64,000 nucleotides of DNA, taken from assembly GCA_000091205.1 (NCBI GenBank), contig AP006497.2, one strand, 5' to 3'. The first letter of the stretch is position 1; the number at the start of each line of letters is the position of its first letter. Origin of the DNA: Cyanidioschyzon merolae (Eukaryota). The position numbers and the translations under genes were made by a program. Shown here in pieces: positions 7,235 through 50,479 of this stretch. The notes under the pieces are model-generated. The model did not search any database, was not told the origin of the DNA, and saw only the letters and a program-made list of their open reading frames with translations.

Positions 7235-8716
7235 CTAGCGGCGAGGAATTGCCCCGCTTCGACCAGACATAAGCTGCTGCATGACGCGCTGGAGGCCACC
7301 CGGACCGCTTCCCAGTTGTTGGAGCATGCGTGGGTCCATCATTCTTTGCATCTGCTGCTCCATAGCGCCTATATTGGGTATGCTGTTTGGGCCGGTACCG
7401 TGGCCAACGCCGCCGTGCCCGGGCTGCATCAGGTGCTTCATATTCTTCCCGATACGACTCCATGCCTTGCTGATCAGTTTGTATTGTGTGAGAACCTCAT
7501 CAACCTCCTGCACAGAACGACCACTACCACGAGCAATGCGACGTTTGCGTGAATCATCCCACCGCACTGAAGTACTTTCATCAAGCTCTTCCCGATTCAT
7601 GGAATCGAGAATGACGAGCATATTCCGCACTCGAGTTTGAGCGTCCTTCTCGGAGCCTTTGGGCAGTATCTCCGCCATGCCCGGCATCATGGAGGCGACT
7701 TTGCTCAGCGGCCCAAGCCGCAGCACATTCGAGTACTGCATCTGCATATCGCGCAGCGTCAGGATGCCCTGTGAAATGCGATTCATTTGCTCCTCATCGG
7801 GATTCTCCAGATCTGCCTCCGCAATGGTCGACACGAGACCACGCACGTCTCCCATGCCTAAAAGGCGTCCGACAAAACTCTGTACCTGGAACTCTTCCAA
7901 GTCGTCTAGGTGTTCGCCAGTGCCCAGGAACACGATCGGTGAATGGGTAGCGGCCACTGCGCTGAGGGCACCACCGCCACGGGCGTGGCCGTCCATCTTG
8001 GTGAGGATGACGGAACCCACTCGAACGCGCTGTTGAAACGCTCGTGCCTGGTCGTAAGCTGCCTGACCGATGGAACCGTCCATCACGAATATCACGTGAT
8101 CTGGAGTCAGCGCTCGGTCCAATTGCTCCATTTCAGCGAAGAGGGCTGCCTCCTGCTTGTGCCGTCCACTCGTATCGACCAGAATGACTTCGAAGCCCTC
8201 GCGACGGAATCTTTCGACGCCCTCGCTCGCAACCTTGACAGCGTCGGTCTCACCGTAGCGCCCATAAAAAGGAACACGTGCACGTGTTGCATTCTGTCGC
8301 AGTTGGTCGAAGGCTCCCGCTCGAAAGGTATCGGCACAAACGAGGCCGGTGCGGTATCCCTTGCGCTTGTAAAAATAGGCTACTTTGACACAGCTGGTAG
8401 TCTTGCCGTTTCCCTGGAGACCGACGAACATGATGACGTTTGATTGGCCGCGTTGTGGTCTATAGGGCGGTATGCCTGGGTCCAGCATACGACATAGCTC
8501 CTCGAAGACGGTTTTGTGGATGAGGCGGCGACGATTGGTGCCCGGCGGGAGCTCGGCTAGTCGAACGCGGTTCTTCACGCGCTGGCGCAGCTCCGAGACC
8601 TGTTTTACGTTGACATCAGCCTCGAGAAGGGCACGTGCTACCTCTTTTAGAGCTGCTTCCAAAGCTGTTTCATCTACGACGACTTGGTTGGTTAGCGACT
8701 GCAGCGCCTTGACGAT
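7235..8716 (-). CDS. SRP54: Signal recognition particle 54 kDa protein (SRP54 GTPase)
   Basis: Continuous ORF (listed 7235..8785; the likely start is MVLETLGTKIVKAL at ~8716). It has an N domain, a G domain with GLQGNGKTTSCVKVAYFYKRKG and DTSGRHKQEAALFAEMEQL, and a Met-rich M domain (MEQQMQRMMDPRMLQQLG). Confidence 0.95.
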   Translation of the reverse strand: MVKALQSLTNQVVVDETALEAALKEVARALLEADVNVKQVSELRQRVKNRVRLAELPPGTNRRRLIHKTVFEELCRMLDPGIPPYRPQRGQSNVIMFVGLQGNGKTTSCVKVAYFYKRKGYRTGLVCADTFRAGAFDQLRQNATRARVPFYGRYGETDAVKVASEGVERFRREGFEVILVDTSGRHKQEAALFAEMEQLDRALTPDHVIFVMDGSIGQAAYDQARAFQQRVRVGSVILTKMDGHARGGGALSAVAATHSPIVFLGTGEHLDDLEEFQVQSFVGRLLGMGDVRGLVSTIAEADLENPDEEQMNRISQGILTLRDMQMQYSNVLRLGPLSKVASMMPGMAEILPKGSEKDAQTRVRNMLVILDSMNREELDESTSVRWDDSRKRRIARGSGRSVQEVDEVLTQYKLISKAWSRIGKNMKHLMQPGHGGVGHGTGPNSIPNIGAMEQQMQRMMDPRMLQQLGSGPGGLQRVMQQLMSGRSGAIPRR

Positions 8717-10699
8717 TTTGGTTCCAAGTGTTTCGAGAACCATGAAGCTGTGCAGGTGGCGCCGAACCGCAACAGCCTCCAGCACTTACGGCCGTTTTTT
8801 GACCTTGGAAGGCGCACCCGCTCCAATAAAAAGTGCTGGAGGCAGCCGCTGTTCCTTGTGACAGGTGCGTGCGAAGCACCGCGTACCGCAAAAACGGAGC
8901 GTTCCCCGGTAAACGACTGACCAGGTTGAGGTTTCGGGTCTGGGTAGCTGCTGGGACGTAGCAGCGGGCCCCGGTGCGGCCTGCTGTTCAACTAGATGGG
9001 TGCGTTCATAGAATGAGCAAGTATATACTATGGTGTTCGGAAAGTATAGTTTAGTCGCAGGGGCGAACACGCCTCGCCGATCTGCGCGCCTTGCTGCCCC
9101 GCTGCGTTTGGCAGATGAGCATGGGATGCGACGCTGGTCACTCGGTTCCCGAATTTCGAGTTGTTCCACCAGCATGAGCACCGAGATGCAGACTCGATAT
9201 TCATAGAGTGGCAATCAAGGCTCACGAGCGCCCGGGTAGCTTTCGAATTCGCGGTCGTCGTTTCGGAGTGGATTCTGGGAGACGTTGCAGTTGGAATGCC
9301 TCATGGGAGCGGCATCAAAAAATGATTCGCGACACCTTTGAACAAGGGTTCGTCCAGTAACCGACTTCGCCATCCCGTTTGTACGTATACCGCTCCATGA
9401 TTCGCTTTTGCGTACGTATAGCATGCGCAAACCGCGCATTGTTCAAGTTGCAGGTCTTTTATTTCTAAGAAAACGCAAGGATGCAGCAATGCGCGCTGCT
9501 GCATTCACGAGGCGCGAAGCTCGTCGTCGTCCTTTGGCGACTTGTTCAGAAACGCATGCAGAAACTTCGTTGACCCGATCACGTTAAATACTCAATTCTA
9601 TTCGAAAGAAAAACGCTACTCCTTTCTTTGACCATCGACGCGAATGCAATCGGCGTCAACATGTTCTCGCTCATGGGACATGCTCCCAGAGGTTCGCGTC
9701 TCTTCTGTTTGCGTGGAAGTGGGTCTTGGGGTCGGACCTGATTTGCTGCAGCAATCGCCTGCAGTGGGGAGTGCGTCACTGCTTTGTACGAAGCGGTTTC
9801 GTCCGATCGAAAAGATTTCGATTGTTCTCCAGCCTGGATTCTCCTTCCTGTTCTTGTTTCATCATGGATAACATCGCCGCTCGCGAATTCTCTATCGAAT
9901 GTAAAAGCGTGCACTTGCATGTGAGCGAACAGAACACTCCCTGAGCGGATCGGCATGAAGAGGCCTCTGTTCGTGGTGTACGGCGTCAGGCGCGAAAACG
10001 GAGAAGAGCATCGGGACGACATTGTGTATCCGTCAAGGGCATGGACCGAGCAGTGCAGCAAGCATACGCGTGTGACGAGGCGGCGTTCAGAGGAGGAGAT
10101 GTGGGAGACCTACGGGAACACCTGGCAACGGACAGGTGCCATTGCTGCGACGGACATGCCCTGATCATATGCGAAGGAGACGATACCGGTTGGTGAATCG
10201 TCGATCGATCGCAACTTTCTGCTGTGTATGAACTGGGTAGAAAACAGTGGGAAGCAGCGTCATCGCGACATGAACGATGCCATCAGCATCCTTCGACCTC
10301 GTTCATCGGACCCGAGCTGGCGCGATAGACCTCGGTATGTGAAGCCGGATACCAGAGCGATGAAGTGGAAACATTTGCGGAAGAATCCCGTAAAGGCTGA
10401 CGTTGATCACAGTACGAAGAGACGCAAACTTGCGCGTGCACGCCAGAGTTCGCTACGTGGACTCCCGCCACCTTAGTCCAACACGGATATACTTGTTCAC
10501 GTCGCACAGTCCTATTACCCAACTGTATCTGCTTTCATGGTCGAGACTACCGGTCGCATACGACGCATCAGAGACCGTATCCCGCAGAACTGAAGATAGC
10601 GCTTGTGAGCGCCCGGGAAGTGTTTGCGCGCTCGACATCGCAACGCCACCGCGCGTTGCTCTGCGGTGAATCACCGAGTGTTGCGCATGATTCGATGTA

Positions 10700-13128: not shown

Positions 13129-15726
13129 TCAAAATGGAGATTCTGCACCCGATAGGGACGAGACGGCGTACATGCCTTCCAAGTCGGAGGCGCTCCACGC
13201 ATCCATGTTGGCTTCGTCGTCCTCCGCCGAGAGACGCAGATATTCGAGTGCTGCGAAGCGATCCCAGTCCGTTAGGTCGGGGACTGCCCGCTCCTGTCTC
13301 AAGAGTGATGGATCTCGACTTTCGATCGCGATGAACTTGTTCAAGTTGAACAGGATATTGAAGAAATGGCTCTGCATGCGACTGGATCGTAAAGCTGAAC
13401 GCGTGATCACCGGTGGATCAAGATCCTTGCTGATCATGTCCAGCAACTGACAGAGAATATCCTCAAATGCAACTGGTTCGTGCCCCAGACACTCCATTCG
13501 ATGCAGTTGTTCTGAATAGAGCCAATCAACATCGTACAGGGTGATCTTTCCATCGCCGTCCGCATCAATGCAGCGAAACCAATAATCCAAGGCCGTCTCT
13601 GAATTCTTGTCTTCCTCGCTGAGGATAAACCAGATGAAATCCGTATAGCTCATGTAGCCTGGGCGTGCGCAGTCGAGAGGCCTTCCTCGTCCACTAAAGA
13701 TACAGTCAATGATCCGGTAGGTCAGGGCGTGCCCGTTGTAGCGCAGCAGATCCTCGCGGTCGATCATGAGATCATGATCTGTGTCCAATTCCCAGAATCG
13801 ACAGTAAATCACGTAGAAATGCTCGTAGCTGAAACAACTACGCTCCTGGTTGATGTCCTCTTGTTCGTCGACGCTTCGAAAAATGTCCAAGAGACGATGT
13901 CGGCGGATATCCGACAGATACGCCTGCCCATTCGGCCGGTTCAGATAGTAGAATATCCGTTCGATGACTGTCTCAGCGTAGCGATGCTGGAACTCTGGGG
14001 TGGACTGCAGAAACTGTAAGCCGGGATGCGTCGCCAGCAGCGCATCAATGAAGGGTCGAAAGTCGGAACCAACAAGGTATCGGCGCTCATGTGCTTGTCG
14101 GTCGGCTCGATCCCGTTGCCCGTCGAGATTCCGCCGATTCGATGTCCATGAAGCTGCTGCAGACCTGGGCGAGATGCTGCTTCTTGGTGAGGATACGCTG
14201 TGAGCGTCGCTCTCCGTACGCTCCTCGTTCGGAACCGATGCGTGATAGTCACGGGAGCGTTGGAGTGCGTGGAAGAGGCGAGCGTGTCGATCGTAGCCGG
14301 CACAGTCCTCAACATACCATTGCAAGAATATGGACTGATGGATACGCTCACCCGTTGCCCCCGGGATGCTGATCTCCTTTGCGCCCTTCTTGTTCGTACC
14401 TTCTACCTCCGAAGCTACGTTGGACGTTTCGAAGTGCTGTTGGCGTTGGAGCAAGCGCTCGAAAATGACCAGCGAGACAAAGCTCGGCAACCCGACAATG
14501 TCCATAATGAGTTCAACGACCTCGCGCTGGCTCAGTGCTCCGTCTTGGCAATCAAAAGCGGCCTGTATGGCCTGTTGTTCTTCTGCAGCCCGGATGACGT
14601 GTTCGTGCGCGCGCCCATCTGGATAGTAGAAGCGCGGGATCGTCTCCGCCTTTGCGAATGCGCACTCTGATGGTACAAAGAGCGCATTCACCGCTGAACG
14701 CTTGTTCAGACCTCCTGAATGGAGCGCATTTCGCTGGTGTGCTGTCTCCTCACATGCAGGTAATGGTGGCGAGAACGATGCTCCATTCTCAGTCGAAGAG
14801 CCATCGTGGCCTACTCCCGAGTCCATATATGATGCGATCTCATGGCAACGCTCCTCGGTATCGGATTGACCATGTGCCATCGCCGCATCGCTATCCTCAA
14901 CTTCGGACCAGATCCTAAAAACCTCATACTTTCTGATGAAATGTGATACTGGCGACTGTGGGCTCGACGTCAAAGAAGCTTCCTCTGTGGAGCTACTCCG
15001 TGAACGGCCTTGCCTTGCAACGCGTGCTTCGCCACCAGCGGGCGAGCCCGGAGTTTGGCTCAAGATGCGATAGAAGGCGCTGCGCGCCGCTCCGGCCGGG
15101 GAGTTTGGCGTAATGGTATCGGCATTCGTCGGACGCTTTGCGGTTGCCCCGTGCGATGCAGCATTACACGAAGCTGTCGGGCTCGAAAGTCGTTCCTGGC
15201 GGAGCATGGTAGGCTTCGGTGAACCAGCAGTCACAAGATCTTCGTCGGTCACCCTTCCCGTGACGTCCAGTTTCCCCAGGACCTGCTCCAACCAAGCGAG
15301 CGTTTCCGGGAGAAACAACCAACGCATAAAGAGGTACTCTAAGTGCCGTTTCGGCTCTAGCGCAATATCCGTGGCCGATAGCGTCACCAGCAGTTTTGGT
15401 GCGTCCATGGTGCCGGAAATCGCGTGCACACCGGACTCGTCGCCCCCGGTAACAAACACAGCTGTAACCTCTATACCAGACTCTATGGTCTGCTCAGAGG
15501 ACATTATTGAAGCGTTCCTACGTAGATCACTCGAGCTGCTGCAGCTCAGCGGAGTCAGGCCGGGGAGATGTGTGCCAAGCCTCACCCGCTTGCGTCTCAA
15601 GACACGAGGCGAGACTGGAACGCACCTTTCAACTTTACAACCATCGCCAGAAGCCGTTCGAAAGTCGAACGACGTCGGGCGTGTACAGTAGTGGCGGCGA
15701 ACGCGCCCTAGACAAATCGTCTCCAA
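13129..15726 (-). CDS. Protein phosphatase 2A regulatory subunit B'' (PR72/PR130-like, EF-hand)
   Basis: ORF of 865 aa. The C-terminal half matches the B'' family: DIFRSVDEQED, FSYEHFYVIYCRFWELDTDHDLMIDREDLLRYNGHALTYRIIDCIFSG, YWFRCIDADGDGKITLYDVDWLYSEQLHRMECLGHEPVAFEDILCQLLDMI. The true start is possibly the internal MSSEQTIESG (~15507), because the first 12 codons overlap the outer end of the inverted repeat. Confidence 0.85.
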   Translation of the reverse strand: METICLGRVRRHYCTRPTSFDFRTASGDGCKVERCVPVSPRVLRRKRVRLGTHLPGLTPLSCSSSSDLRRNASIMSSEQTIESGIEVTAVFVTGGDESGVHAISGTMDAPKLLVTLSATDIALEPKRHLEYLFMRWLFLPETLAWLEQVLGKLDVTGRVTDEDLVTAGSPKPTMLRQERLSSPTASCNAASHGATAKRPTNADTITPNSPAGAARSAFYRILSQTPGSPAGGEARVARQGRSRSSSTEEASLTSSPQSPVSHFIRKYEVFRIWSEVEDSDAAMAHGQSDTEERCHEIASYMDSGVGHDGSSTENGASFSPPLPACEETAHQRNALHSGGLNKRSAVNALFVPSECAFAKAETIPRFYYPDGRAHEHVIRAAEEQQAIQAAFDCQDGALSQREVVELIMDIVGLPSFVSLVIFERLLQRQQHFETSNVASEVEGTNKKGAKEISIPGATGERIHQSIFLQWYVEDCAGYDRHARLFHALQRSRDYHASVPNEERTESDAHSVSSPRSSISPRSAAASWTSNRRNLDGQRDRADRQAHERRYLVGSDFRPFIDALLATHPGLQFLQSTPEFQHRYAETVIERIFYYLNRPNGQAYLSDIRRHRLLDIFRSVDEQEDINQERSCFSYEHFYVIYCRFWELDTDHDLMIDREDLLRYNGHALTYRIIDCIFSGRGRPLDCARPGYMSYTDFIWFILSEEDKNSETALDYWFRCIDADGDGKITLYDVDWLYSEQLHRMECLGHEPVAFEDILCQLLDMISKDLDPPVITRSALRSSRMQSHFFNILFNLNKFIAIESRDPSLLRQERAVPDLTDWDRFAALEYLRLSAEDDEANMDAWSASDLEGMYAVSSLSGAESPF

Positions 15727-18195
15727 TTGCTGTGTAGACGCCTTCCCGTCTTTTTGGAGCGGCCGCCAACTACTGCTTCCAACTTTTTCTCATATAGTTC
15801 GACCTTGAGAGGTTGTCCAACAAAGTTCACTCTTGTCAACGCTGGAGGTCTCGTCTCCAGCGCCGCACATCTCCTTATATTGATGGCGGCGTTAAAGTCT
15901 CGGTTCACAAACTCCATACGTTTCGTGCCATCACTGGTTGTACTTACTGATGCAAGCAATCCTCGAACTTTCGCTCTCCTTTCCATTTGCCCTTCCGGCA
16001 GCGCTCCGTACTTTTTCGTATCCTTAGGGCTCCGCTGGCACTTTTCCATCTCCACCCTCTGGAGTGTACACCCCAGTTCATGGTGTGTATACGATGTTCG
16101 AAACTCATCTACAGGTATTGTTTCAAAACGCCGTGCGCGCTCCCTCTACGTTCTCGTCGTTGGAGCTGGCGTCGTCCTTTTTGGGTCTTCCATCGGCCTG
16201 CTCCGTACGCTACTATGAGCCTCTGACTTTTATCCTCCTTCAAGTCACTCAACTGATTGAGAAAGTTCGCGAACGCACGCTGCATCCCACCGTAGAGATT
16301 CATTCGCAAACGAGCCCACCGGGGCTTGGTATACTCCTCCCACAGCGCATCCCAATGGGCAACACGAACTTCCATGAATTTCCGAAAAGCATCAAGGTCC
16401 GCTCCTCGGCTCGTCACCTCGCTCATAGCTTCCAGGTGATCCTTCATTCCTGAATTCCATGTAACGATTTTCTTCCTCGCATTCACTATACCGGATTCTC
16501 GATAGTATCTCGCTCTCGAGAACCTCAACAGACGCATGTCTTTCTGACGAAAGTTGCCGTCAGCACCATCTTCCGCACGCTTGGGAGCAGCGATGGTGAT
16601 GATATTCGTGTTTCCGGGGTCCGCGCCAAGGACAAAGTCGTTATCCTGCACTTTCTGCATCGCAGGATCCGCCTCCTACTTTTCTTCATGCTTTGCCGCG
16701 TCAGCGACAAAGTCGTTATCCTGTACCTCCAGCGTCTCAGGATCCGCCTCCTTCCCATCTTCATCCTTCGTCACGTCAACGTTAAAGTCGTTATCCTGCA
16801 CTTTCTGCATCGTAGGACCCGCCTTCTTCTCATCTTCATGCTTCGTCACGTCAACGACAAGGTCGTTATGCTCCACCTCCTGCGTCGCAGGACCCGCCTC
16901 CTTCTTTGCTTCATCCTTCGTCACGGGCGCAGCCGAGGGCGGAACTGGCCGATCTTTCCTCAATGCCGATAGTGTACACAGATGGCTACTCCATCGGTTT
17001 CGATCAACCCAGTGAGTACCTTTTGTTTGCTGACTTTGAGAAGTTTGAAATTGAAGATATTCTTCCGGTACGCCTCCTGGTTTTCACCGGAGAACTCCTC
17101 CCTGCGAACATTGAACTCCAGACTGATCTCCTTCATAATGCCGTGAAGGATTCTGGAGTGGATGGACACAAAATCTGACCTTATGTTGCACATTGGAACC
17201 ACGTTGAAGCGCTTCCCCATTAGGAACGCCTTCCGTCTCTCCCGCTCTTCATTTCTTTCCTCACTCAGCTTCATCTCCGCTTTGCGTTCGAGCTCTCGGT
17301 CCAGAAACACGAAATATCGCAGGATGAGGCGATAATATCTTTCCTTATCTTTTTTCAACGCTGATATCTTTTCTGCTGGATTCGCCAGCCCCAAGACTGC
17401 ACAGTGCTCTTGTATAGCCGTACGGATTACAGAATCCTCATTCGTGCTCTCGTTTGACGCCTTCTTGTCAACGAATTCGATCTCATCTTCATGCTAGCGA
17501 TCTTTCGTGATGGCATCGATAATCGCCCATATTCCATTGCGAGATAGGCCCGGGTAGCGTGCAAACACGGCGCGTATCATGAAACGTTCGAGGTTCATAG
17601 TCAAATGCTTCTTCAGGTTCGTGAGCTACTTCATCGCCCCATAGTCGTAAATATTCGAGTCACCCTTGTATCGAGTACCATTGAATCTGTAAAAGGGATG
17701 TTTTTCGTGGAGGGTATGCACTAGCACATTTTCCTTCCGCGCTTTCTCTTTACGAAGCATCAGGTGTTGAATAAACGTCTTATCGATGGACTCGTCCGGA
17801 ATCTCGACCGTTTCGATCTGCGTCACGTCGCGATACATCTCTCTCGCCAAATGCATCAGTCCTGACGAAGCCTTGACAAGACTCTTGGAGTACGAGTCGA
17901 CACGGTTTTCGATTGCGTCTCGCAACTTTTCCCTGTACGGATCCTTGATATGTCCAAGAAGAATGGTTGTCGCCACCTTCTCGACGTACAGCCGTCTTTC
18001 TTGCCGCCTTCGACGTAGGGCCTCTCCCTTTAGGTCCTTCTTCGCTTCCTTGTCTTCTGGACTCGGCACAGTTTTCGTTTTTTTCTGGTAGTCGGCGACA
18101 CTGAGCCTCCAGGATCGTCGGCTTGCTGTTTCATAGCTTTTTTGTTTCTTTGAAAAACAACGCTCTTTGAAGGCTTCTGTTACATACAGCGACAA
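15708..18195 (-). CDS. TnpB/Fanzor-like RuvC-fold nuclease, copy 1. It has the same 4-segment structure (17626-18195, 16960-17394, 16109-16963, 15708-16055), plus 3 extra in-frame 25-aa repeat units before RuvC-I
   Basis: The ADPGNTNII motif has its Asp at ~16619-16621. The [10 protein letters not shown] motif has its Asp at 15897-15899. Segment translations are ~98% identical to copy 2. The same TAG codons and frameshift positions are present. Confidence 0.65.
16625..16925 (-). repeat. 4 tandem units of 75 bp, in frame, encoding 25-aa repeats ([25 protein letters not shown] and variants) just upstream of the RuvC-I motif of nuclease copy 1; copy 2 has a single unit (23871-23945)
   Basis: Minus-strand ORF 16676..16963 shows [25 protein letters not shown] / [25 protein letters not shown] / [25 protein letters not shown] / AAKHEEK...[18 protein letters not shown]. 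Confidence 0.85.
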
Positions 18196-18399
18196 AACGC
18201 TTGACTAGACTTGTTTGAGGTTTGAACCACAAATGAATTAGAAAACTACACTTTGCTACGACCTGAACGGATATCCAATGTTTTACAGCTGAACAACACG
18301 TTACTGATGCCCACGACAGGGACCTTTACCACAATGAACGGAGGGGCGGAGGCAGTAGCAGCAGAAAATATTGACGATAATTCTGAGTAGTTATCCGCT

Positions 18400-21300
18400 G
18401 CTCCCGAAACAACGCTGCAGCTTCGGGCGCAAAATCTGGGTCCATCCTCGAGCTCGGGCTCAGTTTTACCTCCTTCTTCGGTTTCTACCTCAACTCTGGA
18501 AACAATCTCGGCGGATATTTTGGAAGACGGCTGGCGGTATGTTCGCGTTCGAAGCTGGAACGAACGACTTGCCCGCCTATGTGTTTGGGGAGCGGATACA
18601 AAGCCGCTGAAAGGTTGGTTCGTAGAGTATCCCCAGTGGTTGAGGGGAGCTTCATGTGTCCGGCAAGATAAAGGTCGCATTCGAGTCGACCTTGACTAAT
18701 GTACATCTGATTCTACGCTAGTGCGGCGCCAAGCACTCAATGAACGACTGGAATGCGGGAGGCGCTGGTGGCATGTACGCTCACACACCCCGTGGAGGGT
18801 GCATCTAAATTGACGACGTATCTCTGGAGTACCGCAGCGCTATTCCTATTCCGTTACGCGCTACAAATCGGTAGGTATTGCATCATGGAATATTTGTGGT
18901 GTAGCCTCGAAACTAGAATAAGAGATATCGAATTACTAGTAGAGTAAAGAGGATCAGATACAACTGAAGGACTCTACAAAAGGAAAAGCGATCCAACGAG
19001 ATACGGAGAAGGAGACACAGGAACCTCATGATCCACCTAGATGCAAAATAACCAGAGAAAGCAGCTCAGGAAAGAGCCCGAAGAAGAAGAAGACCAACAA
19101 GAAAAGACAGAAGAATAGAGAGAAGAACTCCCAAGCGAGCCCATCATGAGTGATCCCCCGAAAGAGCACCCCAGCAGGAACTCAAGAAAGCCGTCGCCAA
19201 ACCGAGTCACCTACTCACAGCGCTGAAGATCCGAAAAGCCGTGCGTACAAATCTTTAGACCAATTGGCACGCGAGTTTGTAGATGGGAATCAGAAGACTG
19301 CCAGAGAACTGGGACGGCTGGCACCAGAACGCAACAGTTGGAAACCGCAGTACCTGAAACGACGTATCAAAACTCGGATTGATGAATGCCACCGACTCAA
19401 TAAGATCCTCAACCGCACCGCCATACGCGCCAACGCCGGAGACAAGGAAGCGAAGGCAGCGCTACCGGCGCTACAGGCGCAACATGAGGAAGCTATCAAA
19501 AGAAAGAAGAAACTTTCCAGAGAAGACAAACGAGAGGATCGAAACCGCAAAATCGCCTCTCTGATGGAATCTACGCTAGAGAGCACCAACGAAGATGAGA
19601 CCTGGCGCTATATTCGATCGAGACTCGACCCACCGAAAAGTGCTTGGGGCTCACACCAACTGTTAAAAAGAAGAGCTGAGGACGGAGAGTGCCTCAGTGA
19701 ATGAGGCCTGGATAGACCACGGGAGAGAGCTGCATGAAGACGCAACTGGGAACTGCCAAGACCGAATCTATTGGCATCAGTATGCTGCAGAACTACCGCG
19801 CCTCAACCCGGTACCGGAATGGAACGACCCAATCTTCTGGCCTGAATCTGTTCGGACCCTGCTATGCTCAAGCAACCGCAAAACACCTGGCATCGACGGT
19901 ATCGCGACGGAGTGGATGAAACTGGCGACCCCAAAAGACGGGACAACAGGGACACCATCGATACCAGATGAACCTGACACAATCTTAGGCAAACGCCCTC
20001 TGGAGCTCATCCAACGCATGTTTGAAGAAGCATACATCCCTGATGTATGTAGGAGTGTTGAGGTCGTATCGATCCTCAAAAAGGACTCCCACATACACAG
20101 ACATGAACAACTACCGGACTATTCGCCTCATCCCGTCAATCATGAAGCTACTTTGCGCCATGCTCACGAACCGGATCCAGAGGGGCCTCGAGGAGCGCAA
20201 GTTCTTCGCTTCAGAACAGGCTGGATTCCGGAGTCGCGAGGAGTGCATGAGCCATGTCCTGACCCTCATCGGAGTGGCGCAACGTCGCTCCATTAGCGAC
20301 CAACAACCAGCTTACGTATGCTTCATCGACTTTCAAAAGGCCTTTGACACGGTCCCGCACGAGGCTCCATTTCTCAAGATGGAACGCGCCGGAGTCTCCG
20401 AAAAGTGCTTGGCGTTCTTCAGTGCGCTCTATGCAGACTCGTGGATGCGCATCCGACTGGGCGACAGCTCAAGAACCCCTTCCAGAAGAATCCGCCGTGG
20501 ACTGCGACAGGGCGACCGCGCATCCCCGCTCCTTTTCAACATCTTCATCAACGATCTGCTGAACAACGGCAGACAATTCGTGGCTGAGGCGCCGTGGATA
20601 GACTGTGGAGATGTCCGGTGAGGAGCCCTCAGATAGGAACCGCCTCGCAGGCCTTCTATTCGCGGACGATGTCGTGCTGTTGGCACCCACCCCGGAAACG
20701 CTTGCGGCTAGCATGGAACAAGTCAGCGCCTGGACCGATCGCTGGGAGATGAGCATAGGAGCATCGAAGTGCGGCGTCATGGTCATCCATGGAGACTCGC
20801 AGAGCATTCGCAATCGCTCGTGGCGGTTGCAGAATCAGGAAATTCCGGTCGTGGAAAAATATCGCTACCTGGGGGTCGGTCTCATGCTGACGCTCGACGA
20901 AAAGGCACACATCGACGAGATGATCGCCAAGATGCATAGAGGTACAGCGATCGCACGCCCATTCCTATCCGATCCCTCTATCTGCATAGCAATCCGTACG
21001 AGGGCACTAAGGATGTGTATCATCCAGCCTGCGACCTGGGGTGCTGAATTGTGCGGCATAAAGCACAAAAATGCCTCGCGTCTGCAGACAGCCGCCAACA
21101 GGGCAATGCGACTCGTTCGTGTTGGATGCTCAGTGCAGAGCAGAGCAACCAACCCGTTGACACTCGGACCTGAACTCCAAACACCATCGACAGAGGCGAT
21201 AGCAGCAGGCTTCCAGGCACGTGTGTGGGCCAAAGGGCCCATCATGCGCACCTGGTTCAGTCGGAGTTTCATGCAGACCCCAACGCACTCCAAGAAATCT

Positions 21301-22400
21301 TGGATGGAATCGACGCAGATTTGGTTGGAGCGCCACTTAGGCGAAAACACGCTCCCCAATCATTCCCCAGGAATATAGAAGGCTCCCGCCGCCTCTAGCG
21401 AACGGTCCGAACAACCATATGGGAATTTAGACAAGGTACCAGTCGCGCAAGTAACGCCGGCTTGACCCTATCCGGAACTACACCCTAGCATACACATGCA
21501 AGTACTGGTAGGGGGTGCTGGAATTCCCGGGACTTGCTCGAGGTACCCAGTGGCTCGCCAAAATCCGCGTTGGTGGCTTCCGGCTGGCAGCACCGGCTCT
21601 AAGCCGGAAAGGAGCACTGGAATCGCACTGGGAATCACACTGTCCCTGCTGTGGAGACGAGAGCCCCCGAGAAGCTGACGCATTTACTGTTACAGTGCCC
21701 GCGCTAGAATCAGGAGCGCAGCGAGCTCCTTGAAGGACAGCAGCAGCTGGGCATCAGCGTGATAGTGGAAGGCCGGACACTCATTCTGAGTGTAGCACTG
21801 GCAACTGATGGTCCGCTAACCGAGCCGCAGCGCTCGTTAGTGGCGAACAAACTCACATTCTACCTTCTAAGCGGCAGGTCCAACGAATCGGATGAGCACA
21901 CGGGTTTAGTGCTCTTTGTGCCTGCCTACTGGCGGGTGTCAAGCACAAACCCGCATTGCCGACCGACAACACATTCAATGCATGATCACGAAGGAGAGAG
22001 GCGGCTCCCAGGATTCATCCTAACAGCCAAGTTTCTCCAGCGTGTCGTGCAGCGAAGGTAAGACTGCATTTGCAGACTCGCTGAGCATATATCGACGAAG
22101 AGACCCGATTCTACGTCGGGTGAACCACGCCTCGAGCCGACGCCCTCTGTGGTATAGCAACGCCGTTCTGTCTCTATGAGCTATCTGCTCCAGCATTTAA
22201 GGTGCAAAGGCGAATACGGAGCGGCAGCTACTAGGCACACACGATAGGACGTATGAAACGACCAGAATATCTGAGATGAAGCATAGGTAATCTAACTTGG
22301 AGGCAGGTGCTTCATCATGGACGCTTTCCCGAAAGCCATTATCCATTCCAAATTCTGGGATCCATGGTCAATGGAAACGTCTTGTCAATAACAAAAAAAC
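18400..22400 (+). mobile_element. Degenerate, probably 5'-truncated non-LTR retrotransposon (LINE, L1/CR1-like RT) occupying the centre of the palindrome
   Basis: RT motifs lie in three different frames: KTPGIDGIATEWMK (19697..20296), YRTIRLIPSIMKLL...QAGFRSREE...FIDFQKAFDTVPHE...GLRQGDRASPLLFNIFINDL (20022..20621), LLFADDVVLLA (20605..21378). A C-terminal Cys/His motif HCPCCGDES...H is at ~21640-21700. An A-rich tail-like stretch aataacaaaaaaacaaa is at ~22385-22400. No endonuclease domain is recognisable upstream. Confidence 0.8.
19697..21378 (+). pseudogene. LINE reverse transcriptase ORF2 remnant with at least two frameshifts
   Basis: RT domains 0-7 are spread over ORFs 19697..20296, 20022..20621 and 20605..21378 in different frames. 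Confidence 0.8.
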
Positions 22401-22482
22401 AAATTGCGCTCGGTGGGCGCACCTCGGAGATCGGGAAGTCAACTGACACGACGCGCATGCCGCCGTAGAAGGGTAACGCGAT

Positions 22483-24880
22483 TGGGATCAGTAACGTGTT
22501 GTTCAGCTGTAAAACATTGGATATCCGTTCAGGTCGTAGCAAAGTGTAGTTTTCTAATTCATTTGTGGTTCAAACCTCAAACAAGTCTAGTCAAGCGTTT
22601 TGTCGCTGTATGTAACAGAAGCCTTCAAAGAGCGTTGTTTTTCAAAGAAACAAAAAAGCTATGAAACAGCAAGCCGACGATCCTGGAGGCTCAGTGTCGC
22701 CGACTACCAGAAAAAAACGAAAACTGTGCCGGGTCCAGAAGACAAGGAATCGAAGAAGGACCTAAAGGGAGAGGCCCTACGTCGAAGGCGGCAAGAAAGA
22801 CGGCTGTACGACGAGAAGGTGGCGACAACCATTCTTCTTGGACATATCAAGGATCCGTACAGGGAAAAGTTGCGAGACGCAATCGAAAACCGTGTCGACT
22901 CGTACTCCAAGAGTCTTGTCAAGGCTTCGTCAGGACTGATGCATTTGGCGAGAGAGATGTATCGCGACGTGACGCAGATCGAAACGGTCGAGATTCCGGA
23001 CGAGTCCATCGATAAGACGTTTATTCAACACCTGATGCTTCGTAAAGAGAAAGCGCGGAAGGAAAATGTGCTAGTGCATACCCTCCACGAAAAACATCCC
23101 TTTTACAGATTCAATGGTACTCGATACAAGGGTGACTCGAATATTTACGACTATGGGGCGATGAAGTAGCTCACGAACCTGAAGAACCATTTGACTATGA
23201 ACCTCGAACGTTTCATGATACGCGCCGTGTTTGCACGCTACCCGGGCCTATCTCGCAATGGAATATGGGCGATTATCGATGCCATCACGAAAGATCGCTA
23301 GCATGAAGATGAGATCGAATTCGTTGACAAGAAGGCGTCAAACGAGAGCACGAATGAGGATTCTGTAATCCGTACGGCTATACAAGAGCACTGTGCAGTC
23401 TTGGGGCTGGCGAATCCAGCAGAAAAGATATCAGCGTTGGAAAAAGATAAGGAAAGATATTATCGCCTCATCCTGCGATATTTCGTGTTTCTGGACCGAG
23501 AGCTCGAACGGAAAGCGGAGATGAAGCTGAGTGAGGAAAGAAATGAAGAGCGGGAGAGACGGAAGGCGTTCCCAATGGGGAAGCGCTTCAACGTGGCTCC
23601 AATGTGCAACATAAGGTCAGATTTTGTGTCCATCCACTCCAGAATCCTTCACGGCATTATGAAGGAGATCAGTCTGGAGTTCAATGTTCGCAGGGAGGAG
23701 TTCTCCGGTGAAAACCAGGAGGCGTACCGGAAGAATATCTTCAATTTCAAACTTCTCAAAGTCAGCAAACAAAAGGTATTCACTGGGTTGATCGAAATCG
23801 ATGGAGTAGCCATCTGTGTACACTATCGGCATTGAGGAAAGATCGGCCAGTTCCGCCCTCGGCTGCGCCCGTGACGAAGGATGAAGCAAAGAAGGAGGCG
23901 GGTCCTGCGACGCAGGAGGTGGAGCATAACGACCTTGTCGTTGACGCGGACCCCGGAAACACGAATATCATCACCATCGCTGCTCCCAAGCGTGCGGAAG
24001 ATGGTGCTGACGGCAACTTTCGTCAGAAAGACATGTGTCTGTTGAGGTTCTCGAGAGCGAGGTACTGCCGAGAATCCGGTATAGTAAATGCGAGGAAGAA
24101 AATCGTTACATGGAATTCAGGAATGAAGGATCACCTGGAAGCTATGAGCGAGGTGACGAGCCGAGGAGCGGACCTTGATGCTTTTCGGAAATTCATGGAA
24201 GTTCGTGTTGCCCATTGGGATGCGCTGTGGGAGGAGTATACCAAGCCCCGGTGGGCTCGTTTGCGAATGAATCTCTACGGTGGGATGCAGCGTGCGTTCG
24301 CGAACTTTCTCAATCAGTTGAGTGACTTGAAGGAGGATAAAAGTCAGAGGCTCATAGTAGCGTACGGAGCAGGCCGATGGAAGACCCAAAAAGGACGACG
24401 CCAGCTCCAACGACGAGAACGTAGAGGGAGCGCGCACGGCGTTTTGAAACAATACCTGTAGATGAGTTTCGAACATCGTATACACACCATGAACTGGGGT
24501 GTACACTCCAGAGGGTGGAGATGGAAAAGTGCCAGCGGAGCCCTGAGGATACGAAAAAGTACGGAGCGCTGCCGGAAGGGCAAATGGAAAGGAGAGCGAA
24601 AGTTCGAGGATTGCTTGCATCAGTAAGTACAACCAGTGATGGCACGAAACGTATGGAGTTTGTGAACCGAGACTTTAACGCCGCCATCAATATAAGGAGA
24701 TGTGCGGTGCTGGAGACGAGACCTCCAGCGTTGACAAGAGTGAACTTTGTTGGACAACCTCTCAAAGTCGAACTATATGAGAAAAAGTTGGAAGCAGTAG
24801 TTGGCGGCCGCTCCAAAAAGACGGGAAGGCGTCTACACAGCAGTTGGAGACGATTTGTCTAGGGCGCGTTCGCCGCCACC
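22483..24880. repeat. Right arm of the large inverted repeat (contains nuclease copy 2 on the plus strand)
   Basis: Reverse-complement match to 15690-18310, read directly. Confidence 0.9.
22600..24862 (+). CDS. TnpB/Fanzor-like RuvC-fold nuclease, copy 2. The reading frame is split into 4 ORF segments (22600-23169, 23401-23835, 23832-24461, 24515-24862; ~657 aa total), so it is either an intron-containing gene or a pseudogene
   Basis: A RuvC-I-like motif [16 protein letters not shown] has its Asp at 23949-23951. A RuvC-III-like motif [15 protein letters not shown] has its Asp at 24671-24673; D-x-N-A-A-x-N-I is the TnpB/Cas12/Fanzor signature. The RuvC-II region reads [12 protein letters not shown] (no Glu), as reported for Fanzor1-type proteins. 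No CxxC...CxxC zinc ribbon is seen. Segments 1-2 are joined in frame through two TAG codons (23167, ~23296). Segments 2-3 differ by a frameshift. Segments 3-4 could be joined by a 56-nt GT..AG intron (24458-24513). A basic NLS-like stretch RRRRQERR lies near the N-terminus. There is no in-frame ATG at the N-terminal end. Confidence 0.65.
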
Positions 24881-25163
24881 GCTGAAAACTGCGGGAAGCA
24901 ACGTCTTTCTTTTGAAAGAGGTTTGTTGTTGCTGGTGGCGGTTGTGCATCTTTATATCCTGGATCGTGTCAGCGATCTCACACGGTACAAAAGTTGAAGG
25001 GGTGCAACACACGTACAGCTTCTCTGTCTGGGCACGTGCAACGCTCGAATCCTGGCGGCGCTCTCGAGACTGATAGAGAAAGCCCGCTTGTGAGGTATGC
25101 TCGGCGCTTGTTTGATTCGCGCTCTTACCCTGCGCAGGAAGCCGTGAACAAAATACTGCTGGC

Positions 25164-30084: not shown

Positions 30085-30548
30085 GTTCACATTCCGCTGA
30101 TAAAGCGCTTTGCTGAGTACGAGACGTTCTCGTGATGAGAGCGCAGCCCCGGTGCTTGTCTCTCGCAGTGATCACGCCCATGGCAGAGCACTGGGAACCC
30201 CCGCATTGCACTCATAAAGCGCTTTGCTGAGTACGAGACGTTCTCGTGATGAGAGCGCAGCCCCGGTGCTTGTCTCTCGCAGTGATCACGCCCATGGCAG
30301 AGCACTGGGAACCCCCGCATTGCACTCATAAAGCGCTTTGCTGAGTACGAGACGTTCTCGTGATGAGAGCGCAGCCCCGGTGCTTGTCTCTCGCAGTGAT
30401 CACGCCCATGGCAGAGCACTGGGAACCCCCGCATTCCACTCATAACGCGCTTTGCTGAGTACGAGACGTTCTCGTGATGAGAGCGCAGCCCCGGTGCTTG
30501 TCTCTCGCAGTGATCACGCCCATGGCAGAGCACTAGGAACCGGAACGA
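30085..30548. repeat. Tandem repeat, 4 copies of a 114-115 bp unit
   Basis: The unit ...aaagcgctttgctgagtacgagacgttctcgtgatgagagcgcagccccggtgcttgtctctcgcagtgatcacgcccatggcagagcactgggaacccccgcattgcactcat recurs at 30102, 30216, 30330 and 30444. Read on the minus strand (ORF 30087..30770) it encodes 38-aa repeats. Confidence 0.95.
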
Positions 30549-31900
30549 GTGCGTGCACTGCGATTCAGCTTGAGAATGAGGAGATCCTCGATACCATGTG
30601 CTAAACGAATACCTGGTGGACAGCAAATATCCCGACCATATCGCCGCTCTTCGAGTTGCATACGCGCCACACTGATTGCTAAAAACGGAGGCGGTATCAC
30701 GTCGCGCTCCACGAACACATCGATGGCTCGTACGATCCAGTTCACGAACCCGAGTTGAAGGTCGGTGCATTCCTCCAGATCGGTCGGACGAACTGGCAGC
30801 CGCATTCGAAAGCCACGGGGGTGCAGTACACCCGATACATCAACGGCATAAAAACCCGCATGAATAGGCAGCATGTTCACCGGATCGATTTGGAGCTGTC
30901 GTAGAACAGCCCGATAACAGTGGTCGATCGGTTGTGCTGATCCGTTTTGCACAGCGCTTAATGCCGCTTCATCAGTGTAAACAATGAGGTTATAGAGTGG
31001 TCCGCAAAACGTCAGTGAGTTACGTCGATTCCGAGCGCAGCGGTGGTAAACATGCAGGTCCGCATAGAGCGGCTCCAACGGCACACTAAGATAGATGTCA
31101 GGCTGTTGATAGCGTTGAATCACCGCAGGGATCATGGTTTTCGAGTGTCTGTTTCGGGACCTTGCCGAGCTGGCACGGTTCGGTCGCAGCATCCCCGTCA
31201 GGCTAGTGAGTGCGGGGTGTAGAGGCGCCAACCACTGAGGCCCCGGTGACTGCTCCACTGCTGCAGACGCTTTCTGCACAGTCGCTGCCTGAGCTGCCTG
31301 CCGGTGCTGTTGGTTGCGTAGGCCCCAGCGCGACTCTTGGAGTGATCTAGCAACGCGACTGGCAACCTGAGGCTGCACGCGAGCCGAGGCTAGCGCCGCT
31401 CGTTGCACAGCGATCCAGCCCTGCATGTGCCTCTCGGAACAACCGGCGTTTGTTGAGCTATACCAACAGCTGGACGTGAAACTCAAACTTCGAAACTGAA
31501 GTATAAACGCTCTGAAAGAAAACAACGCCAACGCTGCAGCGGCAGGTGCGCTGTCGTCTCTCGGAACACTGAAACCGATGATTGTATGCCGCTGAATGCC
31601 ATGGTTGTGGGCAAAGCAGCGAATTCTGGAGAACCTGTACCAGAACACCCTATTTATCTTGGTTTCCCCAAAGGCATGGAACAAAGGGAAAGTATCGAGT
31701 AGAGTGGAGACAAGTCCCGCAACGTCTGTGTGCTGTGCCTGCTGGCATGACCTGTACCAGAACACGCTATTTATCTTGGTTTCCCCAAAGGCATGGAACA
31801 AAGGGAAAGTATCGAGTAGAGTGGAGACAAGTCCCGCAACGACTGTGTGCTGTGCCTGCTGGCATGAAGGAGAACGGCATGACGTGTCGGTGTCAGTCAC
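30533..31900 (-). CDS. Hypothetical 455-aa ORF whose N-terminus is built from the 117-bp repeats; C-terminal ~200 aa are globular-looking but the family was not recognised
   Basis: A long ORF in GC-rich DNA. The C-terminal segment ...PIDHCYRAVLRQLQIDPVNMLPIHAGFYAVDVSGVLHPRGFRMRLPVRPTDLEECTDLQLGFVNWIVRAIDVFVERD... has mixed composition, suggesting a real domain. Confidence 0.35.
   Translation of the reverse strand: MTDTDTSCRSPSCQQAQHTVVAGLVSTLLDTFPLFHAFGETKINSVFWYRSCQQAQHTDVAGLVSTLLDTFPLFHAFGETKINRVFWYRFSRIRCFAHNHGIQRHTIIGFSVPRDDSAPAAAALALFSFRAFILQFRSLSFTSSCWYSSTNAGCSERHMQGWIAVQRAALASARVQPQVASRVARSLQESRWGLRNQQHRQAAQAATVQKASAAVEQSPGPQWLAPLHPALTSLTGMLRPNRASSARSRNRHSKTMIPAVIQRYQQPDIYLSVPLEPLYADLHVYHRCARNRRNSLTFCGPLYNLIVYTDEAALSAVQNGSAQPIDHCYRAVLRQLQIDPVNMLPIHAGFYAVDVSGVLHPRGFRMRLPVRPTDLEECTDLQLGFVNWIVRAIDVFVERDVIPPPFLAISVARMQLEERRYGRDICCPPGIRLAHGIEDLLILKLNRSARTRSGS
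31634..31867. repeat. Tandem repeat, 2 copies of a 117-bp unit
   Basis: cctgtaccagaaca...ctgctggcatga recurs at 31634 and 31751. It is ORF-preserving in both the + (31596..32006) and - (30533..31900) frames. Confidence 0.9.
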
Positions 31901-47099: not shown

Positions 47100-47740
47100 A
47101 TGGAATGTTTTCCGTCGTGAAACGGAATGATCGATCGATCGTTCGAATTGATGAAGCCTTCAGCACAGTGACACACCGGGGCACATTTCGTATGCCTTCG
47201 GGAAACCGTTTTCCTTCAGGCAAGGTCCTCTCCCGATGGCATAAAGGAGGGGATTCAGTTTCAGAAATAAAAAACCCCAAAGAAAAGTTATGCACATCGA
47301 ATTCGAGTACTCTGGAGGGTCGTCACCCCCGGGTCCGACAAAACCAGAGCGAAAAGTTCTCTTCTAGCCTACCATCGAGCGAAGAAGAACAAATGACGAA
47401 GGAGACGAGGGAGAGTGGGACCTTGGCCAGAAAAAATGTGTATCTGACAGGACGGTGACGAGACGTAGTGTCACAGAGGGCACGAGTTCGAGGACTACTT
47501 GCATTCGTGAGTTCAACCAGAGGACACGAACGCAGGGACTCTGTGAACCAAGACTTGAACGCCGCCATGAATATCCGGAGACCTGCGGCGCTGAAGACAA
47601 GACCCGAAGCGCTGATGCCATTCAACTCTGTGGGGCACCCTCTCACACTCGAATATTGCACGGAGATGCTGAAGCCGATGGCGGGCGGCCGGTCGGAAAC
47701 GGCTTGGAGGCGTCTGTCTGGAGGTATATACGGATAACCT
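47100..47740 (+). pseudogene. Degenerate relic of the TnpB/Fanzor-like nuclease family (3' portion, copy 4)
   Basis: ORF 47468..47737 reads RARVRGLLAFVSSTRGHERRDSVNQDLNAAMNIRRPAALKTRPEAL...MAGGRSETAWRRLSGGIYG. This is homologous to copy 2's [48 protein letters not shown]...[21 protein letters not shown]. The antisense ORF 47323..47844 also matches antisense ORF 15727..16218. It is diverged and interrupted. Confidence 0.55.
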
Positions 47741-49462: not shown

Positions 49463-50479
49463 TTAAGTCCGACGATGACGTTTGGACACTGGAACTTCGT
49501 CCTCGTCTTCGTCCTCGTCAACGGCATCCTCGTCGTCGTCGTCGTCGTCGGCTTCCTCTTCCTCTTCGTCTTCATCAAAGTCTCCGCCCCCGTCCTCATC
49601 GTCATCGAACTCATTATCCTCATCATCCTCTTCTTCACTAAACTCATCGTCCTCGTCTTCTTCGTCGTAGACATAGTCGCCCCCGTCATCATCTTCATCG
49701 TCCTCGTCATCAACGTCGCCGGCGAGGTAGTGCCCGCCCGAAGGGCCTGACGCCTCATCTTCCGAATCCGCCCCATTATTGTCATCTTCCTCCTCTTCGT
49801 CCTCGTCATAGTCACCCTCTTCGTCCTCTTCTCCATCCTCCGCGTCACCACGGTCGTCTTCCTCGTCTTCCTCGTCCAGATCCGCCGGCCTTGTTTTACC
49901 ATACGCCTGTCGAAGCACTGCGTCCTCCTGTTGAATCTCTTCCTCGTCCTCTTCGTATTCCTCATCGTTCTCGTCTTCCTCTGCCCCCTCACCTTCAGCC
50001 TCTTCGTCGTCCTCAACGTCCTCGCCATTTTCATCCTTACCATCTAGCACCATAAGTCCGCGAATCTCGCGGAACATAAACGCGCGATAGTCTTTCAGGT
50101 TGCTCACCGGGCATCCGTAGCAGTCGACGACCCTAAGGTGCAAACAACCGCGCAACGGCTTCAGCGAATCGAGCGTGCGAATAGCGTTTCCAGAAAGATT
50201 CAATACCTCCAAGCGAGGAGCGTGTGTAGGCAAAAGCTCCAGCCCGGCACCAGTTAGGCGGTTGTCGCTGAGCTCCAGCCTCCGCAGCGCCGGAAGCATC
50301 GGAAACCCCGGGGTCAACGAAGTCAATCCGCATCCGTTCATGGACAGAACCTCCAGCGAATCGAAGTTCTCGAGCCCACTTGGATGCGATTGTTTGCAAC
50401 GGTTGTCCAGCACTAACTCCTTGACCTGTCGAGGGAGTTGCTCCCCGATGGCCTTCTTGATTGCCGCCTCCATCTCCAA
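49463..50479 (-). CDS. Acidic leucine-rich nuclear phosphoprotein 32 (ANP32) family member: N-terminal LRR cap plus long poly-Asp/Glu tail
   Basis: MEMEAAIKKAIGEQLPRQVKELVLDNRCKQ...LEVLSMNGCGLTSL...LRRLELSDNRLTGAGLELL...LEVLNLSGNAIRTLDSLKPL...LHLRVVDCYGCPVSNLKDYRAFMFREIRGLMVLDG, followed by ~170 residues of D/E-rich tail. Confidence 0.85.
   Translation of the reverse strand: MEMEAAIKKAIGEQLPRQVKELVLDNRCKQSHPSGLENFDSLEVLSMNGCGLTSLTPGFPMLPALRRLELSDNRLTGAGLELLPTHAPRLEVLNLSGNAIRTLDSLKPLRGCLHLRVVDCYGCPVSNLKDYRAFMFREIRGLMVLDGKDENGEDVEDDEEAEGEGAEEDENDEEYEEDEEEIQQEDAVLRQAYGKTRPADLDEEDEEDDRGDAEDGEEDEEGDYDEDEEEEDDNNGADSEDEASGPSGGHYLAGDVDDEDDEDDDGGDYVYDEEDEDDEFSEEEDDEDNEFDDDEDGGGDFDEDEEEEEADDDDDDEDAVDEDEDEDEVPVSKRHRRT

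Follow-up and report, generated by a model that had tools for sequence, protein, structure and literature searches.

Shared in-frame TAG codons and frameshifts in an inverted pair of Fanzor1 elements of Cyanidioschyzon merolae very probably reflect pseudogene decay

When two copies of a gene are interrupted in the same way, the question arises whether the interruptions are functional, being spliced out or recoded during translation, or are the marks of a dead gene. Such a pair lies in a 64,000-nucleotide stretch of DNA (the window), which belongs to the nuclear genome of Cyanidioschyzon merolae 10D and whose ORFs for SRP54, PP2A-B'' and a Raf-like MAPKKK are identical to BAM81519, BAM81520 and BAM81535 of that strain. 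An earlier note on this sequence had described two nuclease copies with the same interruptions and proposed introns, stop-codon readthrough or a pseudogene as possible explanations. The last of these fits the evidence: the two arms of the inverted repeat are very probably decayed copies of the Fanzor1/TnpB-like element CMe-1A, and their lesions ordinary point mutations and indels. The Fanzor1 family was already catalogued in 2013 and the finding is an ordinary one.

The right copy runs on the plus strand from its left end at 22403 to its right end at 24925, as delimited by sharp ends and by homology to the family member P0001, to which its conceptual protein is 66% identical over 90% of its length. 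No fewer than 18 related loci show the left-end boundary at 22403 just as sharply. The left copy occupies 15650-18311 on the minus strand; its left end is short of the initial ~81 nt, and it has 225 nt of additional tandem repeat. A set of 30 close homologues of the nuclease was assembled, and the HMM profile made from these matched 1924 cluster representatives. While the narrow family profile gave no Fanzor match in the PDB, a profile broadened to 46 diverse members, and only this one, matched the solved Fanzor1 proteins 9cf0 (6.6e-20), 8gkh (3e-14) and 9cer (4.9e-10), in alignments that span the DPG, DEFRT and NRD..NAA motifs. The stitched protein matched no family in a Pfam scan, OrfB_Zn_ribbon included; the precomputed label DUF8286 was not found in the literature, and an AlphaFold2 model of P0001, based on 18 close sequences, reached a mean pLDDT of 35.

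The D/E/D motifs of the RuvC domain are found in order in the right copy, now spread over different frames: RuvC-I (DPGNTN) at 23949-23966, RuvC-II (VDEFRTS, with the catalytic Glu) at 24458-24478 and RuvC-III at 24665-24694, all on the plus strand like the other features of this copy given below. The linker before RuvC-I holds a tandem-repeat unit of 75 nt, or 25 amino acids (23870-23949), and the left arm has three further 75-nt units in comparison with the right one (16624-16923). At the 5' end, as had been noted, there is no ATG in the main frame; comparison with related loci places the family start codon at 22661-22663, in another frame than the body of the gene, and it is followed by an N-terminal region with an NLS-like RKKRK (22709-22723). 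The family stop codon is a TAG at 24860-24862, a site which is TAG in 18 related loci and TAA in 10.

The lesions were called by comparing the two copies with about 60 related loci (55-65 per site), drawn from a set of 71 loci in hot-spring metagenomes collected with P0001 as the query; none of the close homologue proteins is encoded at the class-2 related loci. Each copy carries three in-frame TAG codons and three frame-breaking indels. TAG 1 (23167-23169) stands in place of a Tyr codon, since the related loci have TAC in 43 cases, TAT in 6 and TAG in 0 of 55. TAG 2, previously placed at about 23296 and actually located at 23299-23301, lies in the same frame, separated from TAG 1 by 43 open codons as reported, and replaces a Lys codon, AAG in 42 of 57 loci; the three of these 57 that have TAG are the orthologs L045 and L056 and the locus L055. 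The number of three in-frame TAGs given in the earlier note is right, although the third is found at 24422-24424, where 53 of 65 loci have TAC for Tyr and only the ortholog L045 has TAG. The TAG at 24459-24461, which had been counted in its stead, is present but falls outside the ancestral frame, being the first stop that is reached past the last frameshift.

With regard to the frame, three breaks were identified rather than the single one first proposed. Frameshift 1 is a 1-nt indel near 22721 within an A-rich run (22711-22730), which is one base longer in L002, and because of it the ATG and the body of the gene are in different frames. The other two are clear 1-nt deletions. The deletion at 23830-23831 yields HYRH and a TGA (23833-23835) instead of VHYRRLKKDRPVP, so that the internal stops are not all TAG as had been stated; the extra base is kept in 58 of 60 loci, the deletion being common only to the orthologs L045 and L056. 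At 24394-24395, 58 of 65 loci retain the extra base, as does the ortholog L045, and the off-frame reading beyond this deletion runs to the TAG at 24459-24461 mentioned above. All lesion contexts are identical in both arms, in agreement with the original observation, and in the left arm the TAGs correspond to 17626-17628, 17494-17496 and 16146-16148 and the deletions to positions near 16964 and 16176, on the minus strand. Since three in-frame TAGs and three indels are found in both arms, these copies are to be regarded as pseudogenes and not as working Fanzor1 members. They are in numerous company, as in-frame stops occur in 71 of the 71 related metagenomic loci and a long ORF is kept only in L001. 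That the interruptions could be errors of sequencing or assembly in an intact gene has next to no probability, because the same lesions appear in both arms and three of them recur in the independent metagenome assemblies of L045 and L056.

A spliceosomal intron of 56 nt at 24458-24513, the candidate of the earlier note, might restore the frame and keep the gene functional, possibly together with more tiny introns. The interval does begin with GT and end with AG, it does measure 56 nt, and its excision joins two open frames, namely frame 0 to frame 2. However, in the alignment of homologues the same interval is coding sequence in frame 2, comprising the RuvC-II segment VDEFRTS and the conserved residues downstream of it, and the intron reading is therefore refuted at the sequence level. 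In addition, the change of frame is accounted for by the 24395 deletion, 63 nt upstream, and the in-frame TAG at 24422 as well as the other lesions would survive splicing. The rarity of introns in C. merolae, for which only 27 are known (PMC4829280), argues in the same direction, and the probability left to the intron is negligible.

According to a second functional explanation, the TAG codons would be translated, by readthrough or as sense codons, and programmed frameshifts would complete a full-length nuclease. Its appeal lies in the fact that all three in-frame stops are TAG, that each of the three frame breaks shifts the reading the same way and that the first of them falls within an A-run resembling a slippery site. 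None of these features is out of the ordinary, however, when seen against chance expectation and the related loci. Among 216 premature stops found in the 71 loci, 123 (57%) are TAG, and random single-base nonsense changes in the nuclease coding sequence give TAG in 42-51% of cases, so that three TAGs out of three have a probability of ~0.1-0.2 and are unremarkable; a common direction of the three breaks has a chance probability of 0.25. The frame relation across the A-run was scored in 42 loci and is mixed (same in 16, -1 in 18, +1 in 8), which indicates an indel hotspot and no conserved recoding site, and the deletions at 23830 and 24395 lack a slippery sequence and are private to the lineage. 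TAG is not conserved at the three sites, which are Tyr or Lys codons in the homologues. Furthermore, TAG is used as a normal terminator: a depletion of this codon among the stops of the host genes had been proposed as a check, and of the 18 long ORFs in the window 10 end in TAG, among them the complete SRP54 gene and the MAPKKK gene. A tRNA scan of the window found no tRNA gene of any kind, and the substitutions between the arms, described below, look neutral. Readthrough or reassignment of TAG is accordingly very improbable.

Once the lesions are regarded as decay, the question remains of how both arms came to share them. Apart from the 225-nt tandem-repeat expansion of the left arm, the arms show 25 differences over ~2406 positions and are 99% identical. 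The differences in coding sequence number 19 and are distributed over the codon positions as 6/7/6; 14 of them are nonsynonymous and 5 synonymous (22% synonymous being expected at random). The codon-position pattern had been put forward in the earlier note as a way of recognizing neutral decay, and neutral decay is what the substitutions between the arms display. The high identity and the sharing of all six lesions are what one recent inverted duplication of a dead copy would leave, with no gene conversion involved. Against this simple history stands L045, the left-arm locus of a related strain, which is 98.7% identical over 5219 nt, both left-arm flanks included. TAG 2, TAG 3 and the 23830 deletion are all found in this ortholog, whereas its TAG 1 site reads TAC and the 24395 deletion is missing; the proposal that the lesions predate the duplication is thus compatible with the first three and fails for the other two, which are the youngest lesions and reached both arms late. 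Moreover, ~81 nt of the left end are found only in the right arm and the 225-nt expansion only in the left one, and both left-arm states are also those of L045, which is devoid of the two lesions, so that neither arm can have arisen simply as a late copy of its partner. The shared sites also form a mosaic pattern, with 15 runs against 20.8 expected (p ~0.04). A single recent duplication is therefore unlikely, and the two youngest lesions have probably spread by gene conversion from arm to arm, a conclusion drawn from one related strain and two metagenome assemblies in which chimeras across repeats are possible. Metagenome contigs retrieved by look-ups of SRP54 and of a 441-aa ORF end near the arm boundaries and do not span the whole palindrome, and an exact look-up of the PP2A ORF among the contigs found nothing.

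The space between the arms (18312-22402, plus strand) is filled by a degenerate non-LTR, LINE-like reverse-transcriptase element with several frameshifts. It matches RVT_1 at 1.8e-19, among solved structures its nearest relatives are R2 (2.5e-17) and LINE-1 ORF2p (1.4e-11), and it possesses a FADD motif and a C-terminal CCHC knuckle. The A-rich 3' tail of this element adjoins the left end of the right copy, and the same junction between a LINE A-rich tail and the exact Fanzor left end recurs outside the window in five or more divergent loci from metagenomes, while inverted LINE pieces meet the same Fanzor left-end base in two further loci. It is conceivable, though rather doubtful, that the recurrence is no coincidence and reflects either an R2-like site-specific insertion of the LINE or a Fanzor carried along by it, for instance by 3' transduction; the latter, if true, would represent a retroelement route for the spread of Fanzor. 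The insertion of a LINE plus Fanzor unit into the left copy was also considered and was rejected, the missing 81 nt being absent beyond the right end of the right copy.

At the opposite end of the element, conservation of the 3' UTR extends as far as a terminal hairpin, beyond which about 40 loci diverge sharply. This hairpin, AACGTCTTTC-TTTT-GAAAGAGGTT, is located at 24900-24923 on the plus strand (15653-15673 in the left arm) and is a candidate omega-RNA or right-end stem. RNAalifold found no consensus structure in the 3' tail, the covariation of the hairpin as drawn by hand was not significant, being not above that of shuffles, and an Rfam scan of the window gave no match.

On the whole, these data point to the following course of decay. 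The ancestral gene was very probably one intronless ORF of ~750-830 codons, with the ATG at 22661 as its start and the TAG at 24860 as its stop, in which nonsense changes (TAC>TAG at 23167, AAG>TAG at 23299 and TAC>TAG at 24422) and frame-breaking indels (near 22721, 23830 and 24395) were added in the lineage. The damage accumulated stepwise, in arms placed head to head around the degenerate LINE-like element. Neither copy should be able to make the nuclease and both would be neutral relics, from which, judging by their sequence, no expression would be anticipated. The removal of a false lead, namely a tiny intron or the recoding of TAG, in a genome noted for its mere 27 introns, carries little weight in itself. 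As by-products, the analysis provides the precise left and right ends of the subfamily and a conserved non-coding tail at its 3' side, a possible guide to the omega-RNA of Cyanidiales Fanzor, as well as a small natural case of a pseudogene that decayed step by step, with gene conversion between the arms as a likely contributor.

Among known systems, the nearest is CMe-1A itself, a Fanzor1 of which ~150 copies have been reported in the C. merolae genome (Bao and Jurka, 2013; PMC3627910). The copies of the window share with it the organism, the protein family and the presence of one Fanzor1 ORF per element, as well as the lack of detected TIRs and TSDs and the fact that copies are numerous, old and mainly decayed. 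They differ in that the right copy is without the ~635-nt, TE-N2_CMe-like 5' module, which is present in 12 related loci and is replaced here by the LINE tail, that the left copy is short by 81 nt at its left end, and that the two form a 99% identical pair in inverted orientation. The solved Fanzor1 proteins PpFz1 (9cf0), SpuFz1 (8gkh) and GtFz1 (9cer), RNA-guided endonucleases encoded in eukaryotic transposons, are homologous at the profile level and have the same order of RuvC D/E/D; in contrast to these distant relatives, the copies described here are broken, their RuvC-I is preceded by a 25-aa tandem repeat of variable number, and their guide RNA is only putative. The bacterial TnpB of IS200/IS605 represents the ancestral family, in which the nuclease gene is likewise at the 3' end of the transposon and the right end is structured, as it may be in the present element, whereas here the host is eukaryotic, the N-terminus is NLS-like, and there is neither a TnpA nor a match to OrfB_Zn_ribbon. 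Finally, inverted arms that are kept alike by gene conversion are familiar from the palindromes of the primate Y chromosome. The arms described here resemble these in their inverted orientation, their 99% identity and their mosaic of shared variants, but they measure only 2.4-2.6 kb and consist of transposon pseudogenes in place of a functional cargo.

The two arms are inverted relative to each other (right arm, 22484-24889, + strand; left arm, 18311-15681, - strand; both delimited by repeat search and by direct alignment of the arms) and are, with high confidence, both pseudogenes from a catalogued Fanzor1 family, each broken by ordinary mutations, with no intron, no recoding of TAG and no programmed frameshift. 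What had been observed earlier from the sequence is real in part; its interpretation as an intron or as recoding fails. The host DNA is eukaryotic, has a GC content of about 55% and contains few introns, and three ORFs of the window are exact matches to annotated Cyanidioschyzon merolae 10D proteins from a 902,900-bp chromosome, namely SRP54 (7235-8743, - strand, identical to BAM81519), the PP2A B'' subunit (13129-15504, - strand, BAM81520) and a Raf-like MAPKKK (58486-62214, + strand, BAM81535).

By direct alignment, the arms differ by 25 substitutions over about 2406 nt and by a 225-nt insertion in the left arm, made of three additional 75-nt tandem units. This unit encodes a 25-residue in-frame repeat with a high content of Lys, Glu and Asp, immediately preceding RuvC-I (23870-23949 in the right arm, 16624-16923 in the left); the right arm has about one copy, against four in the left arm and in its ortholog, and the number is highly variable across homologues. 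The space between the arms (18312-22402) is occupied by a degenerate non-LTR retrotransposon with RVT_1 matches, a FADD motif, a C-terminal CCHC knuckle and several frameshifts, the top solved relatives of its reverse transcriptase being R2 and LINE-1 ORF2p. Metagenome contigs carrying the flanking host genes end near the outer boundaries of the arms (about 15790 and 24850-24920), which suggests that the repeat also disturbs assembly in natural populations.

Elsewhere in the window, old 3' fragments of the Fanzor family (about 72-73% identity) lie at 51342-51642 (- strand) and 47476-47715 (+ strand), and further tandem repeats at 30090-30541, 31633-31866 and 49470-50050 (114-nt units in three to four copies, 117-nt units in two, plus an extended GA(C/T)-rich tract encoding acidic repeats on the - strand). 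Moreover, 71 nt at 54208-54278 are 96% identical to positions 8401-8471 of the related metagenomic locus L001, where they adjoin a LINE 3' end; this conservation is well above that of the surrounding repeats (82-87%), and the stretch has no tRNA or Rfam match.

The ancestral state at each lesion was read from a protein alignment and from DNA alignments to the long-flank loci L001 and L002 and to 71 further metagenomic loci. At the TAG at 23167 the related loci carry TAC (43) or TAT (6) and never TAG, at 23299 they mostly carry AAG (42 of 57) and at 24422 TAC (53 of 65). The breaks at 23830/23831 and 24394/24395 are 1-nt deletions, the extra base being present in 58 of 60 loci, where it restores VHYRRLKKDRPVP, and in 58 of 65 loci, where it restores a 14-residue stretch, respectively. 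Every one of these contexts is found in both arms. The family start, MK(K)Q.DDPGG...RKKRK, can be read at 22661, out of the body frame. A frame-breaking indel near 22721, within a run of A, separates the two, which is why the body frame lacks an ATG at its 5' end. Across 42 loci the frame relation over this A-run is the same in 16, -1 in 18 and +1 in 8, a mixture that marks a mutational hotspot rather than a conserved recoding signal.

Three-frame translation confirmed the in-frame TAGs at 23167-23169 and 23299-23301, the 43 open codons separating them and the TAG at 24459-24461. The latter had been read as the end of a third coding segment; it exists, but is off-frame, being merely the first such stop downstream of the 24395 deletion. 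Similarly, the proposed GT...AG intron (24458-24513) does measure 56 nt and its excision does join two open frames, but the interval is coding: the frame reconstructed earlier for the last third was wrong, and frame 2 continues right across it. In fact, the first codon of the supposed intron is the Val of VDEFRTS (24458-24478), the RuvC-II motif bearing the catalytic glutamate. A special role for TAG is equally contradicted, since host genes end in TAG and its share of nonsense is as expected. TAG terminates ten of the window's 18 longest ORFs, including the kinase gene and a complete SRP54, both with products that match annotated proteins exactly. When the intact homologue or the repaired arm was put through every possible single-base change, TAG made up 42-51% of nonsense outcomes, because G/C-ending codons dominate; the 71 related loci together hold 216 premature stops, 57% of them TAG. 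The chance of finding TAG at all three sites is accordingly about 0.1-0.2. Furthermore, the codon-position comparison of the arms, for which the earlier note had named a neutral pattern as a refuting result, gave just that: the 19 differences in the repaired coding frame fall 6/7/6 by codon position, with 14 nonsynonymous and 5 synonymous changes (random expectation, 22% synonymous).

A metagenome contig, L045 (Ga0080006), matches window 14316-19533 at 98.7% identity over 5219 nt and, since the match takes in both the PP2A and the LINE flanks, is the left-arm ortholog in a related strain; L056, from a different sample, is consistent with it. This ortholog has the TAGs corresponding to 23299 and 24422, the 23830 deletion, a left end shortened by 81 nt and the 225-nt expansion, with TAC at the 23167 site and the base deleted at 24395 retained; carrying only part of the lesions, it indicates that the damage built up stepwise. 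The 81 nt are kept in the right arm and absent from the left arm and L045, and the expansion of these two is absent from the right arm; as judged from these sequence differences, neither arm arose by simple late copying of the other. Despite them, the two youngest lesions (TAG 23167 and the 24395 deletion) are common to both arms. Informative sites form a mosaic, the right arm agreeing with the left at 21 sites and also at the 24395 indel, the left arm with L045 at 18 and the right arm with L045 at 6, in 15 runs against 20.8 expected (p ~0.04). Gene conversion from arm to arm would have spread the two youngest lesions, and we infer it as the simplest account of their sharing.

At the left end of the element, homology has an abrupt onset at 22403, shared by at least 18 related loci. 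Two classes of upstream sequence occur: a module of about 630 nt, found in 12 loci and probably corresponding to TE-N2_CMe, and a LINE-like A-rich 3' tail fused to the exact left-end base, which opens ATCGCGCTCGG. The second class comprises the right copy (22300-22410) and five divergent metagenomic loci, L022, L025, L028, L031 and L039 (about 1000-1180); in L001 (8510-9673) and L011 an inverted LINE fragment adjoins the same base. The LINE at the L031 junction has an internal deletion, 18312-18815 and 21859-22315 being retained, and R2 elements, among the top solved relatives of the junction LINE's reverse transcriptase, are site-specific. Insertion of a joint LINE and Fanzor unit into the left copy was rejected, the missing 81 nt not being found beyond the right end of the right copy. 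At the right end, conservation of the 3' non-coding tail (24863-24925; 15650-15707) extends as far as a terminal hairpin (24900-24923 in the right arm, 15653-15673 in the left) in about 40 loci, after which the flanks diverge, in many loci starting G/T-rich (GGTGGTG or GTTGTTG-like). Two hairpin types, TTCGA-CTT-TCGAA and TTTTTC-TTTC-GAAAGG, can both pair; hairpin covariation was no higher than in shuffles, and RNAalifold returned no consensus structure for the tail. The hairpin is, as a lead, a candidate omega-RNA or right-end element, and the tail could form the end of an omega-RNA scaffold that has a guide or target preference. In L044 (351-457) a Fanzor right end (the hairpin together with the final ~40 nt of the ORF) precedes the ~630-nt module of another copy by about 90 nt, an arrangement also seen in L013, L066 and L078 that suggests tandem or nested insertion beside an existing right end.

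As regards known systems, the ORF fragments of the arms have no NCBI protein annotation, and all 30 close homologues of the stitched arm protein come from JGI hot-spring metagenomes. The top one, P0001, has a 752-codon open frame with 66% identity across 90% of the query. It is the only long open copy found (L001, 9936-12259); its ATG frame differs from the body frame and it ends about 45 codons short of the family stop, so that this copy may not be fully intact either. A profile built from the 30 homologues retrieved 1924 cluster representatives, and a profile of 46 diverse members matches the solved Fanzor1 proteins of Parasitella (PDB 9cf0, E 6.6e-20), Spizellomyces (8gkh, E 3e-14) and Guillardia (9cer, E 4.9e-10), in alignments spanning the DPG(R/N), (D)EFRT and NRD..NAA motifs. 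Bao and Jurka (2013; PMC3627910) reported one Fanzor1 family in C. merolae, CMe-1A. Its copies number about 150 and each match a consensus of about 3 kb at about 80% identity; some are still intact, and they lack TIRs and TSDs and have a 635-bp 5' module in common with TE-N2_CMe. Taken with the Fanzor1 matches, this description identifies the arms as copies of an already known element, CMe-1A, catalogued in 2013.
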